From: a virus
Virus record (IMG/VR): IMGVR_UViG_3300025949_000019
Span: 33,539 to 97,538 of that record
Length of the DNA stretch: 64,000 bases
Reading direction: 5' to 3' (one strand)
Part shown: positions 996 to 35,310 of the stretch, one piece after another
Numbering within the stretch: position 1 is the stretch's first letter
Layout of the letters: each line of letters starts with the position of its first letter
Program-made: the position numbers and the translations under genes
The notes under the pieces: model-generated
Told to the model about the DNA's origin: nothing
Databases searched by the model: none
What the model saw: only the letters and a program-made list of their open reading frames with translations

Positions 996-2738
996 ATGGA
1001 AAATTTCTTCTTTGGAAAAGCTGGATTGATTCCTTGGATTGGGATCGTAGAAAGACGAAATAGCGATGATCTAAGGATTGGTCGCTGTAAGGTCAGGGCT
1101 TTCTTTCACCACAGCGGTGACACATCAGAAATGTCAACGGATTCGCTTCCCGATGCATATCCACTAGAACCATTGACAGGAACATTCTGGGCAACAGCGA
1201 AGGAAGGTGATACTGTTTTTGGTTATTTCTTGGACGAAAAGAAACAATCAATGCTAATTGTTGGAAAATTGCCTGTTGCTCTCCAAAATGAAGTCAATCA
1301 TCCAGAAGGTTCTGGTTTCAAGGATGCAAGAACAAGTGCAGAGCTAGCCTCGTTTCCAAGACAGATTTTCAAGACATACAGATATTCACCTAATGGTGTC
1401 GATGCACAGGAACTAGACAAGGCTGCAAAATATCCTCCATATGGCTCAGACAAAGCCTCAATACCATTTTTGTCAAGAGCAGACGAGGCTGCAATTCCAT
1501 CCCAGATTTCTCCAGATTCTAGAAAAGCCCAAGCCTCCGGAACTAGATACAACACAGCCGATGGTAAGACATGGTTTGAATTGCCAACTGTCTGGTCTGC
1601 GAAGTATCCTTTCAATCATGCATACGAATCAGAATCACTTCATGTCATGGAGTTCGATGATTCGCCTGGCTCCGAGAGAGTTTCCCTGCACCACAGAATA
1701 GGCTCTGGTTTTGAGTTTTTCCCTGATGGTTCTGTTGTCTATAAAAATATGAAGGACGGTTATGAGGTGACATTGGGGAACAAGAAAATCGGTATCTCTG
1801 GTGATTGTGATGTTCACATCAAAGGTAACAGGACATTGCTGATAGATGGTAACCTGACACAACACGTTTCTGGTGACTATTTTCTATCGGTTGACGGTCA
1901 GATGAAGACACTTATTAGAGGAAATGAGACAAGAAACATAGGTGCAGACAGCAAGACTTCTATTCAGGGAGATTTTGTCAACAAGGTGGCTGGTCAGCTA
2001 TGGTTGCAGGGAAGCAAGATACAGGAAAATTCTTCATCTACACCAGACGTAGATGAAATCCATGACTTTGATCTACCGTCGTTACCAGCAAACACAATTG
2101 AAAACACATCGAAATTGATTTCTATTACAGGCACAGAAGTTGCAGCACACGATGATACATTCAAGGTTGCAGGAGGCGGTTCAGGTGAAGTTGTGACCAC
2201 AAACAAGCTAACACCAGCGCCAACGACATGTCCTGTCGTGAAGGATTCAACGACTGCATTTACTGATGGCGATTCACGTTACAGAATGCAGCTTTCGAAA
2301 TATTACCAATTGGCTGATTTGACAATTCGCCCACCATATCCTCATGCAATTGCAGATCAAAATGGCTTGAGTCAGGCTGATATAATTTGCAACCTAGCAG
2401 CACTTTCATTGCAGATCATAGATCCAATCTCCGCTCAATTTCCCGGTTCTCAGATCAATTCAGGATTCAGGGCTTTAACTGATGGTAAGTCACAACACGA
2501 ATCGGGTGAGGCTGTTGATTTGCAATGGCCATCAATAACTGCTGGTTCATTGTCTAAATACCTAGAGATTGCAAACTGGATAAAAGACAATCTACCATTT
2601 GATCAATTGATTCTAGAGCATGGAACAACATGCTGGATTCACGTCTCAATGTCTAGAACAAAGACAAATAGAAAAGTAACCTTGACTCAGATAAATGGAA
2701 CATACTATCCAGGTCTTTCAATGTTTGGGAGGATATAA
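996..2738 (+). CDS. gp5: Baseplate central spike gp5 with C-terminal M15-type Zn peptidase
   Basis: N-terminal OB-fold motif (WIGIVE..IGRCKVR..H), KYPFNH..ESLHVMEFDDSPGSERV motif and beta-helix repeats (V/IxGD/N). C-terminal SGFR..SQHESGEAVD..WIHVS is a peptidase M15 signature. Confidence 0.9.
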   Translation: MENFFFGKAGLIPWIGIVERRNSDDLRIGRCKVRAFFHHSGDTSEMSTDSLPDAYPLEPLTGTFWATAKEGDTVFGYFLDEKKQSMLIVGKLPVALQNEVNHPEGSGFKDARTSAELASFPRQIFKTYRYSPNGVDAQELDKAAKYPPYGSDKASIPFLSRADEAAIPSQISPDSRKAQASGTRYNTADGKTWFELPTVWSAKYPFNHAYESESLHVMEFDDSPGSERVSLHHRIGSGFEFFPDGSVVYKNMKDGYEVTLGNKKIGISGDCDVHIKGNRTLLIDGNLTQHVSGDYFLSVDGQMKTLIRGNETRNIGADSKTSIQGDFVNKVAGQLWLQGSKIQENSSSTPDVDEIHDFDLPSLPANTIENTSKLISITGTEVAAHDDTFKVAGGGSGEVVTTNKLTPAPTTCPVVKDSTTAFTDGDSRYRMQLSKYYQLADLTIRPPYPHAIADQNGLSQADIICNLAALSLQIIDPISAQFPGSQINSGFRALTDGKSQHESGEAVDLQWPSITAGSLSKYLEIANWIKDNLPFDQLILEHGTTCWIHVSMSRTKTNRKVTLTQINGTYYPGLSMFGRI

Positions 2739-2743
2739 GATAT

Positions 2744-3382
2744 ATGCCAGGAGCAGCACGAACGTACAAAAATTACATGATCAAATTTCCCAATGAAAAA
2801 GTTTATGTGGGCTATACTTCAACCAGTATGGAAGATAGGCGTAAAGCTCACAAGAGGGATATGAAGTTAAATAGACCCGTATCAAATGCTCTCAAGAAGT
2901 ATGGATTTGAAAATGTAAATTGGCAAATCATTGCGGAGTTTGATAATGAGCATGATGCTCTAGAAAATGAAAAGAAGTTAATTGAAGAATACAATTCTAG
3001 AGACATAAATTTTGGATATAATGTGTCTGTTGGAGGTGAAACTTTTCCAACCGGTTTTAATGGATCATATTGGATGGAAGGAAAAACTGAAGCTGAAATT
3101 AAATCGATTAATAAGAAGAAGGGAAAACCAGGCGAAACAAATCCATTTTACGGTAAGAAACATTCAAAAGAGTCTATGGATAAGATGGTAGCTAAAAGAC
3201 GAGCTAGTGGTTCTTATGATATCCCATCTTGCTCCATCCCTATAATTTATGACGGAATAGAATATAAAACTAAGAGTCATATGAGGCGTGCTACCGGTAT
3301 AAGTAGAAATAAACAAAACAAATTAATATCAGAAGGAATTGCTACATTGAAAGCTCAGATCAATGGTAAGGAGGTTAACTAA
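2744..3382 (+). mobile_element. Free-standing GIY-YIG homing endonuclease with NUMOD3 motif
   Basis: xNY..KVYVGYT, catalytic R (EDRRKAH), E (ALENEKKLI), GYN, and NUMOD3 GETNPFYGKKHSKES. AT-richer than neighbours and inserted between gp5 and gp5.4. Confidence 0.88.
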
Positions 3383-3676
3383 TGCCCGGGGCATCTCGTT
3401 TTGGCGATCTTTGCTCTGGGCATTAGTTGCCATGGTTGTTATCCGTCACGTCCAAACATCTCCGCATCAGATGATGTGTTTGTAAATGATATTGGTTCTC
3501 ACAGGGTTTCTGACCAGTGGGACGTTCATTGTTGCAAGCTTTGTCACGGCGGGTCCACGATAGAGGGTTCGCCAGATGTGTTTGTGAATGACCTGCCAAA
3601 GGCACGCATTGGTGATGCAGTTGATTGTGGTTCAATGATTCTAGAAGGTTCCGATGACGTATTGGTGAATGAATGA
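3382..3676 (+). CDS. gp5.4: PAAR spike-tip protein gp5.4, split into two frames by a 10-nt insertion (recoded gene or pseudogene)
   Basis: SD AAGGAGG at 3368-3374; ATG 3382 reads MPGASRFGDLCSGH then TAG at 3424. The +1 frame continues HGCYPSRP..DVFVN..H..C..H..GSPDVFVNDLPKARIGDAVDCGS. Confidence 0.85.
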
Positions 3677-5355
3677 TTCCTAATTTCCTAACAGATACAT
3701 TTTCTTCAGTAGCCGGTGAGTTTGCAAACTCCTCGGGTCCATTTATTGAAGGGCTTGACTTTGATGCAAGCCAGTTTCCATCAGATTTGGTTAATCTACC
3801 ATCTGAATTGAATATTCAGAAGTTAAATCCATTCCAGTCTGACATGGTTAAGACCATCCTAACAGAGAATGGCCGTGCTGAATTGTTCACAAATCCTCAC
3901 ACGCAAGATATTCTTGCAGTCAGGACACGATTAAACAATCTTCTAAATTCGCCTGGTGCGAATGCAACTGGTGTCGATCTATCAATTTCACTAGGACCGT
4001 CCGTGACTGATCTTCTAGAGACAATAGATCACTTCGAATCTCACACCGATAGACTGTCTGGAGTCATTGAGCCAGACACAAAAACAGCAGCATTACCAAC
4101 ACTAGAGCGAGCCTTGGCTGTTGGCAGCAGCATCAATCACATTCACAAGGTTCTAGATATAGACCTAAAGCCAACAAATTCACCAGTCCTGTCATTGTTT
4201 GGATCGCTGTTTGCAGGGAAAACTCATTTTGATAATCTGAAGACAATCCTCGCAAAGCCCGACTCCGATATCCTACCAGAAGATTTGAATGGCATTTCCC
4301 AATCGTTGACTACCTTGGCTGAAAACGATGTTAAAAACTACACCGTTGCTGTCAAGAAACTAAAGAGAATTGGTGTTGCAAACATGGTCTTCGGCATGAA
4401 GGACAAGCCAGTAGAGGCTAATATCATTTCATTGGTCACGACTTCGTTTTCGAAAGGTTTGTTCCAGAATGATACGACAAAAAGGGATGCGGATCAGGTT
4501 GCAACAACACAGAAACGTCTTGAGATTCAGGCTGCATCCAGAGCAAATACTGTCTCGTACAACCAGGAATTCAAGGAAATTCCAGACTTATTCAGGGCTC
4601 ATGGCTTATTTGAGGGAATTCCTATTACGTGGGATATCTATAAGAAAATCACAGACCAATACCCATCAGACCAGCCAGGCTTGTTCAATTCATATCTGTC
4701 AACAGAAAGACTAACATCACCAGATCAACTCAGCATTTATTTCAATGCCCCATTTAAGTTTAAAAAAGGCAAGTTCTTATTGGCTATCTTCCAAGACTAT
4801 GTAAGCCGCCAGGCTAAAAGTAACATCATTGGTCATGCGGACTGGTACTTTGGTGGCGTTCTGAAGTTTGGTTCGATATCTAAGATTCTACTAGACGAAG
4901 GTTGGTTTAATGGCTCAATAACAAATTCCCTAGGCGGTACAGTCGATGACAAGATAGAACCACAGACATATGATAATGGCAATTGGAGGAGGGCGACCAC
5001 AGATGAGGAAGCAAAACTGAAGGATTTCGTCGTGAACTACCCAAATGGTAATGTAAATGGCGTGAATGATGATTTGCTTCGCAGGATGAGATTCTATGTC
5101 TACGGGGCTCCATTTGACCTATATAACTGGATTGGTTCTAGATACTTGATTCCAGCAGACCCAACACTAACACCGCCAGGTCAGATTTACCAAGGTGGTA
5201 TTTGGATTCCACCGCAGCCACCGAAGCCATGGCCACCGGGTGTTATCAATTACGTCCTATTCACTGGCGGACCAAACGGAGCCCATTGGGACCCACAGTA
5301 TGCTGCCTCTTGGACTGGTCACAGAGACCCATCAGACGCAATCCAACCATCATAA
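3673..5355 (+). CDS. Hypothetical protein, probably virion/baseplate associated; Pro/Trp/Gly-rich C-terminus
   Basis: 560-aa ORF coupled (ATGA) to gp5.4 and lying before gp25; no recognisable motif. Confidence 0.6.
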   Translation: MIPNFLTDTFSSVAGEFANSSGPFIEGLDFDASQFPSDLVNLPSELNIQKLNPFQSDMVKTILTENGRAELFTNPHTQDILAVRTRLNNLLNSPGANATGVDLSISLGPSVTDLLETIDHFESHTDRLSGVIEPDTKTAALPTLERALAVGSSINHIHKVLDIDLKPTNSPVLSLFGSLFAGKTHFDNLKTILAKPDSDILPEDLNGISQSLTTLAENDVKNYTVAVKKLKRIGVANMVFGMKDKPVEANIISLVTTSFSKGLFQNDTTKRDADQVATTQKRLEIQAASRANTVSYNQEFKEIPDLFRAHGLFEGIPITWDIYKKITDQYPSDQPGLFNSYLSTERLTSPDQLSIYFNAPFKFKKGKFLLAIFQDYVSRQAKSNIIGHADWYFGGVLKFGSISKILLDEGWFNGSITNSLGGTVDDKIEPQTYDNGNWRRATTDEEAKLKDFVVNYPNGNVNGVNDDLLRRMRFYVYGAPFDLYNWIGSRYLIPADPTLTPPGQIYQGGIWIPPQPPKPWPPGVINYVLFTGGPNGAHWDPQYAASWTGHRDPSDAIQPS

Positions 5356-33312: not shown

Positions 33313-35310
33313 ATGTCAGAATTCTTAAGGTTGTTAGGTTTTAATTTTGGTCCTAACACGTCTATCACAAAGGAAGTTCCAAAAGAGGAACGTTCTCCAA
33401 TCACCCCAGTCAATGAAGATGGGGCAGTCACCATTCAGTCTACGCCATACTATGGCACCTACATCGACCTAGAAGGTTCGGTCAGAAACGAAGTAGAGTT
33501 AATCACGAAATATCGCTCAATGTCAATTCAACCCGAGTTGGAAAGAGCAATCGATGAAGTCGTAAACGAAGCAATTCAAAAGGACGAAGAAGGTGATATC
33601 GTTGAACTTGACCTAGATGACTTGAAGGTCTCTGAGGGAACAAAGGAACGAGTCATTGAAGAATTCGAAGAAGTCCTGAAATTATTGAACTTCAACACAA
33701 CACCAGATGAAATCTTCAGAAGATGGTACATAGATGGTAGAATTTACTATCACATCATCGTAAACGAAATTGATCCATCAACCGGCATACGAGAACTACG
33801 CTATGTCGATCCTCGTAGAATCAGAAAAATCCGTGAGATTCAGAAGAAAAAGGACCCATTGACTGGTGCAGATGTTATTGTCAAGATCAATGAGTATTTT
33901 CTATATTCTGAGAAAGTCACGCTCTCACAGACAGTCTCTACAAACCTAGGTCTAAAGATCGCGCCAGATTCAATCATCTATGTCAATTCGTCTTTGATGG
34001 ATGAGAAGGGTTTGATGGTTCTTTCCTATCTACACAAAGCAATCAAACCCCTAAACAATCTAAGAATGGTAGAAGATGCATTGGTCATCTACCGACTTTC
34101 TAGGGCTCCAGAACGTAGAGTGTTTTACATTGACGTTGGTAATATGCCGAAGCAAAAAGCAGACCAATATCTGTATGACATTATGATGAAGTACAGAAAC
34201 AAATTGGTTTATGATGCCTCGACAGGTGAGGTTCGTGACGATAGAAAACACTTGAATATGATGGAGGACTTCTGGATTCCACGTCGCGGAGAAGGAAAGT
34301 CAACAGAAATCTCTACACTTCAATCTGGACAAAACCTGTCTAGAATCGAAGATGCTGAATTCTTCAAGAAGAAGCTATACGAATCGCTTGGAATCCCGGT
34401 TGGTCGTCTAAACCTTGATGGAAATGCTCCCTCAATCGTCGGTGTTGGTCGTTCTACTGAGGTCACAAGGGAAGAACTTAAGTTTGCCAAATTCATTGAT
34501 CGTCTTCGTAACAAATTTTCAAATGTCTTCTTGAATGCACTTGGCACCCAACTTCGCCTAAAGAATGTCTGTAATGAAGAAGAATGGAATGTTCTAAAGC
34601 AAGACATTAAATTCAAGTGGTTAAAATCAAACAACTTCGATGAACTCCTAGAAGGCGAACTTCTACGCGAGAGACTGATCACCCTTCAAGCAATCGATCC
34701 ATATGTTGGTCGTTATTTCTCGACAGAGTGGGTCAAAAAGAACGTCCTTCATATGAATGATGAAGAAATCTTGGAGATGGATGCACAGATCGAATCTGAG
34801 AATGAAGTCGGAACGCCTGCAATGGAAGGATCACCACTTCAAGTCCAACAGCAACAGCTTGACCAACAAGACCAGATGCAAACAATGGCACTTCAACAAC
34901 ACGATGCAGCCCTAGATCAACAAGATGCAGTCACGGGCGCAATCAAGGATGGCGGTGCTCAGATTGCAATTCAAGGCGCAATGATGCCTCCGGGACAAGG
35001 TGGTGGAGCAATCAACACATTCGGTAAGGCTGGCAAGAAACCGGGGCAACCTGGTCAAGGCAGCCCATTCGGAGGAACACCATCGGGTGCAGTTCCGGGT
35101 GATGGAGTCGGTGGCGGCGCTGGTTCTGGCGTAACGATGGGCGCAGGAACAGGTGGAGACATGAACATGGCTGGTGGCCAACAACAAAACGGACCAGTCG
35201 CACAACCCAAGATCGGAAATGCTCCCGGATCAGGGAAGAAGATTGCATCGAAGATGAAGAAGAAGGGTGCAGCAAACAGCAAAAAGAGGTTGAGTGGCGG
35301 TCTTCAATAG
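33313..35310 (+). CDS. gp20: Portal protein gp20 with long low-complexity C-terminal extension
   Basis: FRRWYIDGR, YLHKAIKPLNNLRMVEDALVIYRLSRAPERRVFYIDVGNMPK, EDFWIPRRG. Confidence 0.97.
   Translation: MSEFLRLLGFNFGPNTSITKEVPKEERSPITPVNEDGAVTIQSTPYYGTYIDLEGSVRNEVELITKYRSMSIQPELERAIDEVVNEAIQKDEEGDIVELDLDDLKVSEGTKERVIEEFEEVLKLLNFNTTPDEIFRRWYIDGRIYYHIIVNEIDPSTGIRELRYVDPRRIRKIREIQKKKDPLTGADVIVKINEYFLYSEKVTLSQTVSTNLGLKIAPDSIIYVNSSLMDEKGLMVLSYLHKAIKPLNNLRMVEDALVIYRLSRAPERRVFYIDVGNMPKQKADQYLYDIMMKYRNKLVYDASTGEVRDDRKHLNMMEDFWIPRRGEGKSTEISTLQSGQNLSRIEDAEFFKKKLYESLGIPVGRLNLDGNAPSIVGVGRSTEVTREELKFAKFIDRLRNKFSNVFLNALGTQLRLKNVCNEEEWNVLKQDIKFKWLKSNNFDELLEGELLRERLITLQAIDPYVGRYFSTEWVKKNVLHMNDEEILEMDAQIESENEVGTPAMEGSPLQVQQQQLDQQDQMQTMALQQHDAALDQQDAVTGAIKDGGAQIAIQGAMMPPGQGGGAINTFGKAGKKPGQPGQGSPFGGTPSGAVPGDGVGGGAGSGVTMGAGTGGDMNMAGGQQQNGPVAQPKIGNAPGSGKKIASKMKKKGAANSKKRLSGGLQ

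Follow-up and report, generated by a model that had tools for sequence, protein, structure and literature searches.

To our knowledge, natural programmed bypassing is very rare and has been described only for gene 60 of phage T4 and its homologues, the byps of yeast mitochondria and, probably, the terminase gene of phage phiHau3. Forward shifts of the ribosome are stimulated by an upstream hairpin that refolds and by a stop codon in the A site, as known from prfB and from studies of upstream hairpins. A laboratory form, the "stop-hop" between matched codons in Escherichia coli, is associated with Weiss et al. 1987 and O'Connor et al. 1989; there, the peptidyl-tRNA reportedly leaves the codon in front of a stop and re-pairs at an identical codon 6 to 9 nt downstream.

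In T4, MobA and gene 60 belong to a single mobile cassette, the gene 60 insert giving protection against MobA, and the known homologues of this bypass are all found in Topo2L (bioRxiv 10.1101/2022.08.31.505936). The cassette was termed unique in the 2022 survey by Manning and Atkins. It has been proposed that forward bypassing is driven by pairing of the mRNA as it exits the ribosome (bioRxiv 10.1101/2024.12.09.627546), and a 10-nt bypass in the phiHau3 terminase gene has the support of a junction peptide (PMC10732093). An earlier note on the DNA studied here, made from the sequence alone, had named both the T4 arrangement, in which insert and nuclease travel together (bioRxiv 10.1101/2022.08.31.505936), and a proposed bypass of ~10 nt in a Streptomyces phage terminase gene; both are borne out, the latter by the 10-nt inserts of phiHau3 (PMC10732093). 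The gene at issue here encodes a PAAR protein related to T4 gp5.4, which is dispensable for assembly and plaque formation; the H14A variant of gp5.4 shows no spike binding, His14 being needed for both folding and binding to the spike (PMC12407873). Within the literature collection that was searched, bypassing with homing endonucleases returned only the T4 gene 60 work, and searches on PAAR and gp5.4 returned nothing on recoding in these genes.

Anatomy of the PAAR locus

The window is the whole stretch of 64,000 nt that was analyzed, positions 33,539 to 97,538 of IMG/VR record IMGVR_UViG_3300025949_000019, a 97.5-kb contig of a soil phage that is ~54% complete by estimate. Its PAAR gene is split by a short insert and stands behind a homing endonuclease gene (Table 1). 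The start of the gene can be read directly as the earlier note had described it: behind the Shine-Dalgarno sequence AAGGAGG, the ATG at 3382 opens the 14 codons of MPGASRFGDLCSGH, the last of these, CAT, is followed at once by TAG, and a second CAT lies in the +1 frame, after which GGT and TGT lead into the PAAR body. The first CAT, the codon of the conserved metal ligand His14, is proposed for take-off and the second for landing; between them there is no CAY triplet in any frame. As had also been claimed, removal of 10 nt gives a full gp5.4-type protein of 94 aa, colinear with the 94-aa relatives P0002-P0009 and without any further lesion.

Table 1. Features of the window's PAAR locus and the interruption sites of three lineages. 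Positions are those of the window; slashes mark the two edges of each gap.
Feature	Position	Strand	Details
Baseplate hub/spike gene, gp5-like, 580 aa	996..2738	+	Pfam Gp5_OB, Gp5_C, Gp5_trimer_C
Left copy of PAAR codons 1-6, ATGCCAGGAGCAGCACGA = MPGAAR, fused to nuclease ORF	2744..2761	+	
GIY-YIG/NUMOD3 homing-endonuclease ORF, free-standing, 212 aa	2744..3382	+	PF01541 3.3e-7, PF07460 1.8e-5 (Pfam)
Shine-Dalgarno AAGGAGG of PAAR start, inside 3' end of nuclease ORF	3368..3374	+	
RNA hairpin, 20 bp, one bulge	3373..3431	+	arms 3373-3393 and 3412-3431
PAAR segment 1, codons 1-14, frame 0	3382..3423	+	last codon CAT 3421-3423
10-nt coding gap, TAGTTGCCAT	3424..3433	+	TAG 3424-3426, TTGC 3427-3430, CAT 3431-3433
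PAAR segment 2, codons 15-94 and TGA stop (3674-3676), +1 frame relative to segment 1	3434..3676	+	
Interruption site, window			CAT/TAG TTGC CAT/GGT; gap 10 nt
Interruption site, L008-10			GGG CAT GGT/TAA CTA GGT/TGT; gap 9 nt
Interruption site, L118			GGG CAT TCG/TAG TCG/TGT; gap 6 nt

The gene meets the criteria for a PAAR-repeat spike tip (~95 aa, His/Cys metal ligands, a position adjoining a gp5-like hub gene). The window protein aligns with 4JIV and 4JIW, His14 included, and the body after the gap matches Pfam PF05488 (E = 2.4e-10). This is the single PAAR match in the 97.5-kb contig; because the contig is only about half complete, a second PAAR gene elsewhere cannot be excluded. The hub carries a C-terminal extension of ~225 aa that is missing in L033, the nearest relative without the nuclease (~70-75% nucleotide identity), whose hub of 358 aa stops where the extension starts and directly precedes an intact 94-aa PAAR gene.

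By its sequence, the nuclease is of the free-standing GIY-YIG homing-endonuclease type, having a catalytic domain plus NUMOD3 and a sporadic distribution (absent in L033, present in 2 of 92 upstream ORFs), and is up to 40% identical to annotated phage homing endonucleases. These homologues align only from residue 11-17 onward, and the nuclease domain proper probably starts at ATG 2777. The first codons of the nuclease ORF repeat the PAAR start (13 of 18 nt identical to 3382-3399), and this left copy is the left edge of the cassette. Together, the MPGAAR copy and the late onset of the alignments indicate that the cassette entered after PAAR codon 6 and took the old start, and that it brought its own Shine-Dalgarno sequence and a rebuilt PAAR 5' end. 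The rebuilt ATG (3382-3384) overlaps the nuclease stop codon as TAATG, and the insert lies ~25 nt 3' of the junction between cassette and PAAR gene.

Recurrence of the insert and integrity of the gene

The contig L032 (Ga0105240_10360379, 1647 nt) matches window positions 2712-4358 at 99.45% identity, differing by 9 SNPs without any gap, and contains the same 10 nt and an identical nuclease; the presence of the insert in this independent contig means that it is no assembly error. The 91-aa ORF of the +1 frame is on record from at least 4 contigs. All 9 SNPs between L032 and the window are synonymous, 4 of them lying in PAAR segment 2, and none falls within 2712-3531, the stretch of nuclease and insert (P = 0.002). 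This SNP-free stretch looks like a recently spread cassette with a co-conversion tract. If the cassette homed into diverged backgrounds, the synonymous SNPs may predate the insert.

Measured against L033, pN is 0.095 in the 14 codons upstream of the gap and 0.093 in the 80 downstream codons, with pS saturated. The equally low values imply that purifying selection acted alike on both halves through most of their history, and the gene is not decayed. The relatives retrieved by protein search (P0002 at 86% identity, P0003-P0009 at 64-78%; all 93-94 aa) without exception read GD.C.GHGC[FYW]P.RPN across this site, as do phages V45v66, Atu_ph07 and ACP17. A megablast search of the region against cultured phages gave no match. 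P0006, which is a 92%-identical relative with a start called internally, may be another interrupted allele.

A different genetic code was considered and rejected, as TAG serves as the stop codon in 24 of 117 long ORFs and table 11 gives a normal coding density; reading TAG as a sense codon would in any case leave the frame wrong. No tRNA genes were found in the window. Nor did a simple tandem duplication account for the origin of the inserts, which copy their flanks by no more than 3-4 nt.

Two further interrupted lineages

An N-terminus check of ~60 distinct PAAR relatives brought up L008, L009 and L010, three contigs of an AT-rich phage whose PAAR protein is ~55-59% identical in amino acid sequence to that of the window, and an IMG/VR pattern scan for non-canonical His14-Cys16 spacing brought up L118. 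In both lineages the gap lies one codon 3' of the window's gap, and all three follow one rule: a stop codon stands immediately 3' of a codon X, the first downstream triplet in any frame that is cognate to the tRNA of X is X itself, and resuming after the second X restores GH(G/S)C. By chance, the 3-nt match has a probability of 1/64 per lineage, and a stop as first inserted codon one of 3/64.

A scan for canonical spacing matched at least 120 contigs. Within the 133 distinct canonical-spacing alleles among the matches listed no frameshift occurred, and the only premature stops were UGAs at Cys positions. The lack of frameshifts and random nonsense argues that damage is confined to one site and bound by a rule. 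All three interrupted alleles use CCC for Pro2, GGG for Gly13 and CAT for His14; among the intact alleles in the matches listed, GGG is found at Gly13 in 18% and CAT at His14 in 47%. A variable-gap pattern run over genome contigs gave one random non-PAAR match only, and a second viral scan (ATGCCC...GGGCAT) gave one random match and no new allele. The site also varies in length in nature: a PAAR subfamily carries one extra residue there (GHPHC, GHPPC and similar), and L123 has a perfect 15-nt duplication (5 residues) at the site, close to the end of its contig. Three extra residues after His14 were not found among 62 distinct N-termini.

The ORF directly upstream of PAAR genes is usually the hub, and in a Pfam comparison of 92 upstream ORFs a GIY-YIG domain was found in this position only in the window and in L118. 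Thus, two of the three interrupted lineages have an upstream GIY-YIG, compared with 0 of 121 intact alleles with enough flank among the matches listed (p = 3.9e-4). The L118 ORF comprises 93 aa; its Pfam match covers the first half of the GIY-YIG domain (1.4e-7), its identity to the window nuclease is 41%, and it has the same K-E-x-x-stop end with embedded AAGGAGG. It is thus a copy in decay from the same family of cassettes, and its half domain parallels the decay of mobA in T4. No nuclease was found within 4 kb of PAAR in L008-10, which either lost it, as Manning and Atkins describe for MobA elements, or carry a resistance allele. As to the co-occurrence of insert and nuclease that the earlier note wished to see checked, L033 lacks both, and among the matches listed an upstream GIY-YIG occurs only in interrupted alleles; L008-10 are interrupted without a nuclease nearby. 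The same slot holds other nucleases beside an intact PAAR gene, namely, an HNH nuclease in Variovorax phage V45v66 and Hef in Campylobacter phage CP81.

A long hairpin from start codon to proposed take-off codon

The mini-hairpin GGCA-TTAGT-TGCC, which the earlier note had placed around the first CAT and the stop, exists but folds no better than chance (29-nt fold z = -0.48, equaled by 61 of 200 shuffles). Its bases belong to a far stronger 20-bp helix (3373-3393:3412-3431), the 5' arm of which comprises the end of the Shine-Dalgarno sequence, the spacer, the AUG and codons 2-4, while the 3' arm runs from codons 11-14 through the stop and the gap up to the landing codon, of which it takes in the first base. 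This helix reaches -35.6 kcal/mol (z = -6.2), and none of 200 shuffles folds as well. A hairpin of the same architecture is found in L008 (-30.5 kcal/mol, z = -5.65) and a weaker one in L118 (-20.2 kcal/mol, z = -2.76); the corresponding z values of intact L033, V45v66 and ACP17 are +0.2, +0.6 and +2.0.

The continuous helix running through the AUG:CAU pairing spans 18 bp in the window, 15 bp in L008-10 and 8 bp in L118. Among the 133 intact alleles in the matches listed, the same helix is missing (0 bp) in 71, measures 3-6 bp in 60 and reaches 7 bp and 14 bp in one allele each. When most of the insert is excluded, a 60-nt fold still gives z = -6.7 for the window and z = -7.75 for L008, against a mean of +0.56 and a minimum of -2.71 for the same 133 listed alleles. 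A hairpin from start to take-off codon thus co-occurs with the interruption, and its role in hopping is inferred.

Comparison with described systems

The likeness to T4 gene 60 and MobA is extensive. A homing-endonuclease cassette splits or rebuilds a conserved phage gene, and the non-coding insert lies ~20-25 nt from the cassette edge. Take-off and landing codons are identical (CAT in the window, GGT in L008, TCG in L118), a stop stands right after take-off (TAG, TAA and TAG, respectively), a 5' stem-loop is able to refold behind the ribosome, a function that is inferred, and there are relatives in which the nuclease is decayed or lost and the insert is kept. In contrast, the gap is 10 nt (9 and 6 nt in the other lineages) instead of 50, there is no sequence homology, and the elements differ in nuclease (GIY-YIG versus HNH), target gene (PAAR versus topoisomerase) and hop codon (His in the window versus Gly). 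Three elements of gene 60 are not met: the take-off stem-loop in the window is not significant, the 14-aa chain carries no nascent-peptide signal, and the gap lacks an internal Shine-Dalgarno sequence 6 nt ahead of the landing codon (no GAG or GGAG). The window cassette is therefore an independent short-gap analogue of T4 gene 60/MobA, not a homologue. The independent cassette of GIY-YIG nuclease and bypassed insert inferred in the earlier note is supported by every comparative test made here, though by comparison of sequences alone, with translation and nuclease specificity inferred.

The phiHau3 terminase gene (Smith 2013; PMC10732093) has two frame-disrupting inserts of 10 nt, the same gap length as in the window. 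It shares a slow A-site codon that opens the insert on its 5' side, a proposed stimulator in the form of a stem-loop upstream, and insert flanks that are colinear with uninterrupted relatives. It differs in that the A-site codon is a rare sense codon, UUA, proposed to sense the state of the host, whereas the window has a stop, and in that it has no linked homing endonuclease and is known from a single lineage rather than three with different gaps.

The form of the laboratory stop-hops is reproduced exactly by L118 (UCG UAG UCG) and L008 (GGU UAA CUA GGU). Those were reportedly synthetic or mutant constructs with a yield of ~1%, whereas the PAAR cases are natural, recurrent and accompanied by a large hairpin. 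The +1 frameshift of prfB (RF2) likewise uses an A-site stop as a pause and an upstream stimulator that pushes the mRNA forward, but it depends on a P-site codon able to re-pair in the +1 frame (CUU U), together with a Shine-Dalgarno sequence 3 nt upstream. The window site does not qualify as prfB-type, since a move from CAU to AUU gives no pairing with tRNA-His.

Proposed hop and history of the cassette

We favor, with somewhat better than even confidence, the reading that a nuclease cassette has brought with it a short translational hop, which is tolerated at low yield and kept because it disrupts the nuclease target. Protein, ribosome-profiling and RNA data are lacking, and the proposal is drawn from the nucleotide sequence. 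In it, a GIY-YIG cassette would have inserted after PAAR codon 6, so that the nuclease took over the old start MPGAAR, and would have supplied a new Shine-Dalgarno sequence and a rebuilt PAAR 5' end with the 10-nt insert directly after the His14 codon. After 14 codons the ribosome would stall, its peptidyl-tRNA-His sitting on CAU while UAG occupies the A site. A majority of the stalled ribosomes would terminate at UAG; a minority may un-pair, slide 10 nt and pair again on the following CAU, which is the first triplet in any frame that is cognate, and would then resume at GGU to give the canonical 94-aa PAAR protein. The predicted junction peptide is FGDLCSGHGCYPSR. At the stall, the 5' arm of the hairpin would lie outside the ribosome and its partner strand still inside, and refolding of the hairpin behind the ribosome could draw the mRNA onward, a role already suggested for the 5' stem-loop in gene 60.

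Three features limit this proposal: the nascent chain has only 14 residues, there is no peptide signal like that of gene 60, and RF1 would compete at UAG-U. For these reasons the efficiency of hopping may be very low. A low yield would suffice, however, since one PAAR protein caps the spike of each virion.

The insert was probably kept because it breaks or re-spaces the nuclease target in GGNCAYGGNTGYTWYCC, the gene's most conserved stretch, as we infer. Since the cassette regenerates a complete PAAR 5' end, it would also regenerate the target of its own nuclease; protection by the insert is inferred by the logic of MobA. A hop would, we further infer, add no residues beside the metal site. 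Given the role of His14 in folding and spike binding, extra residues beside it would be selected against.

A broader claim extends this reading to all three lineages, namely, that phage PAAR genes hold a natural family of short stop-hops (6, 9 and 10 nt) that arose independently at the metal-ligand His codon as GIY-YIG immunity alleles, each driven by a hairpin, and that form a minimal counterpart of gene 60 within a wider class of nuclease-plus-hop elements. We consider this claim evenly balanced between true and false.

Alternative explanations

The main rivals to a hop are a dead gene and recoding by +1 shift or readthrough. In the first, the gene has lost its function or is losing it, and nothing is translated past the stop; the insert is then a scar, which either error-prone repair left behind after a nuclease cut or a palindrome-extending template switch produced. 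We consider this unlikely, though by no means negligible. The T4 5.4am phage assembles and plates normally (PMC12407873), and as T4 gp5.4 is dispensable, a dead PAAR gene can persist for a time; loss of gp5.4 nevertheless costs ~1.55-fold per growth cycle (PMC12407873). With gp5.4 dispensable yet costly to lose, a null allele could survive for a while. The incompleteness of the contig also leaves room for a dead gene; against it, there is no second lesion, pN is equally low in segments 1 and 2, and neither frameshifts nor random nonsense codons occur elsewhere in the 133 alleles among the matches listed.

The insert itself offers the scar some support. The bases immediately 5' of the AUG, GGU.AACUA, are complementary to the window insert UAGUUGCC, as quasi-palindrome mutation gives, and this complementarity means that a template switch could explain both the site and the hairpin without function; recurrent damage at one site could, moreover, reflect one nuclease cleavage site. 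A scar does not, however, account for three independent lesions in which each stop directly follows a codon that recurs as the first cognate triplet, nor for inner helices of 12 bp that lie in coding sequence outside the inserts and that are found in 0 of the 133 intact alleles among the matches listed.

The second rival is recoding without a hop, which would be a +1 shift in the window, with Ser-tRNA reading AGU to give GH-SCH-GCYP, and readthrough with 2-3 extra residues in L008 and L118. The +1 shift predicts the junction peptide ...CSGHSCHGCYPSR. The gap indeed has no stop in the +1 frame, and forward shifts have known stimulators in upstream hairpins that refold and in stop codons of the A site; tRNA-His is unable, though, to re-pair on AUU. 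Extra residues have precedents in the natural subfamily that is one residue longer and in the 5-residue duplication of L123, and because the loop tolerates at least one extra residue, as in the GHPHC subfamily, residues added by a +1 shift or readthrough are not excluded. None of the 62 distinct N-termini, however, has 3 residues after His14. This rival would also need different mechanisms across the three lineages and leaves the matched codons (1/64 each) unexplained, and in the 10-nt case of phiHau3, mass spectrometry favored bypassing (PMC10732093). We therefore regard recoding without a hop as improbable overall, although neither a +1 shift nor readthrough can be ruled out for any one lineage.

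Initiation at an internal TTG (3401), with the upstream 14 codons as a leader peptide, would yield an N-terminally different PAAR protein of 91 aa. The ORF 3401-3676 exists, and its database version is P0001/P0025, as gene callers report it. The TTG lacks a Shine-Dalgarno sequence, however; a start there would put unrelated residues in place of the first PAAR motif (MPGA.R.GD) and the C-x-G-H spacing, and the true N-terminus stands intact in frame 0 behind a perfect Shine-Dalgarno sequence, which leaves this explanation with very little to recommend it. An assembly or sequencing artefact, conceivable because the record is a metagenome assembly with no reads mapped, is scarcely credible, given that an independent contig differing by 9 SNPs has the same insert, that at least 4 contigs on record contain it and that the L008-type insert is present in three contigs.

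Significance

Within one small gene, PAAR phages thus present three independent sites with the form of short stop-hops, all with a 5' hairpin and two with a homing endonuclease. If the hop proposed here is real, the combination of nuclease and bypass as a solution evolved more than once. It would also offer a minimal system, consisting of ~70 nt of RNA and a 14-aa nascent chain, in which to test sliding driven by the refolding of mRNA. For annotation it would be a warning, as such genes are now called as truncated ORFs or ORFs with an odd N-terminus, for example, the 91-aa P0001. For the biology of these phages, it would mean that recoding of low yield can be tolerated and is tied to proteins needed once per virion.

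Hub extension and variation at the PAAR interruption site

The hub, the gp5-like baseplate spike gene, is extended at its C-terminus by about 225 aa with an SGFR...H..GEAVD-type motif, for which no Pfam match was found and which is possibly a cell-wall peptidase. The extension is present in the hub of L118, an independent interrupted lineage, and absent from the closest relative, L033. The spike encoded in the window continues past its beta-helix, and how PAAR caps such a spike is unexplained.

At the site of the PAAR interruption, another related contig (L123) carries TGCTCAGGCCATGGA two times in direct succession, an exact tandem duplication of 15 nt that reads CSGHG-CSGHG in frame and without a stop. 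Because the contig ends about 100 nt away, the duplication could reflect either real instability of the site or an assembly effect. For a further PAAR relative (P0006, 92% identical, on a Logan contig of 4538 nt) the sole gene call is a 64-aa product beginning at an internal start (MNDIGSHRV), and the 5' part of this gene may therefore be interrupted as well. In Acidovorax phage ACP17 the PAAR gene is intact and annotated only as a 40-aa fragment; the short CDS reflects incomplete annotation rather than damage to the gene. One intact allele alone (L175) has a long helix between the start and His14 (14 bp), either a possible forerunner of the interrupted state or mere chance.

In-frame TGA codons at cysteine positions

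In genomes spanning 25 to 50% GC, four different PAAR alleles have an in-frame TGA exactly at the cysteine position of their relatives (HC[TGA]xxxCH), and one of them (L095) has two (HC*GPP*H versus HCCGPPCH). Each of these genes terminates with TAA, and translation table 11 gives a normal coding density. Hairpins, at most candidate SECIS elements, lie 3' of the UGAs. Judged from sequence alone, the pattern fits selenocysteine, or UGA decoded as cysteine.

Homing endonucleases at the hub-PAAR junction

The slot directly before PAAR also holds other homing endonucleases, with stop/start overlap and PAAR intact. The nuclease of Variovorax phage V45v66 is an HNH_3 type with a NUMOD3-like motif, and that of Fletchervirus, seen in Campylobacter phage CP81, is Hef. 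The hub-PAAR junction is thus a homing endonuclease hot spot. Between the window and L032, a contig with the same insert and GIY-YIG nuclease, all nine SNPs fall in one segment, leaving the nuclease and the opening 150 nt of PAAR free of differences. From the alignment, this clustering resembles the co-conversion tract that homing leaves.

Coordinates of features at and around the hub-PAAR junction
Feature	Locus	Positions
Hub C-terminal extension	window	2050-2738
Region compared with L032	window	2712-4358
Segment containing the SNPs	window	3532-4044
Region with the tandem duplication in PAAR	L123	4471-4551
Intact PAAR, ACP17	L003	2962-3249
Annotated PAAR CDS, ACP17	L003	3133-3255
Region with the slot nuclease, V45v66	L001	2312-2962
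Slot nuclease	L043	
Slot nuclease	L049	
Region with the slot nuclease, Campylobacter phage CP81	L248	1-1478
TGA-bearing PAAR	L061	1319-1606
TGA-bearing PAAR	L095	4962-5246
TGA-bearing PAAR	L108	3389-3676
TGA-bearing PAAR	L191	2578-2865
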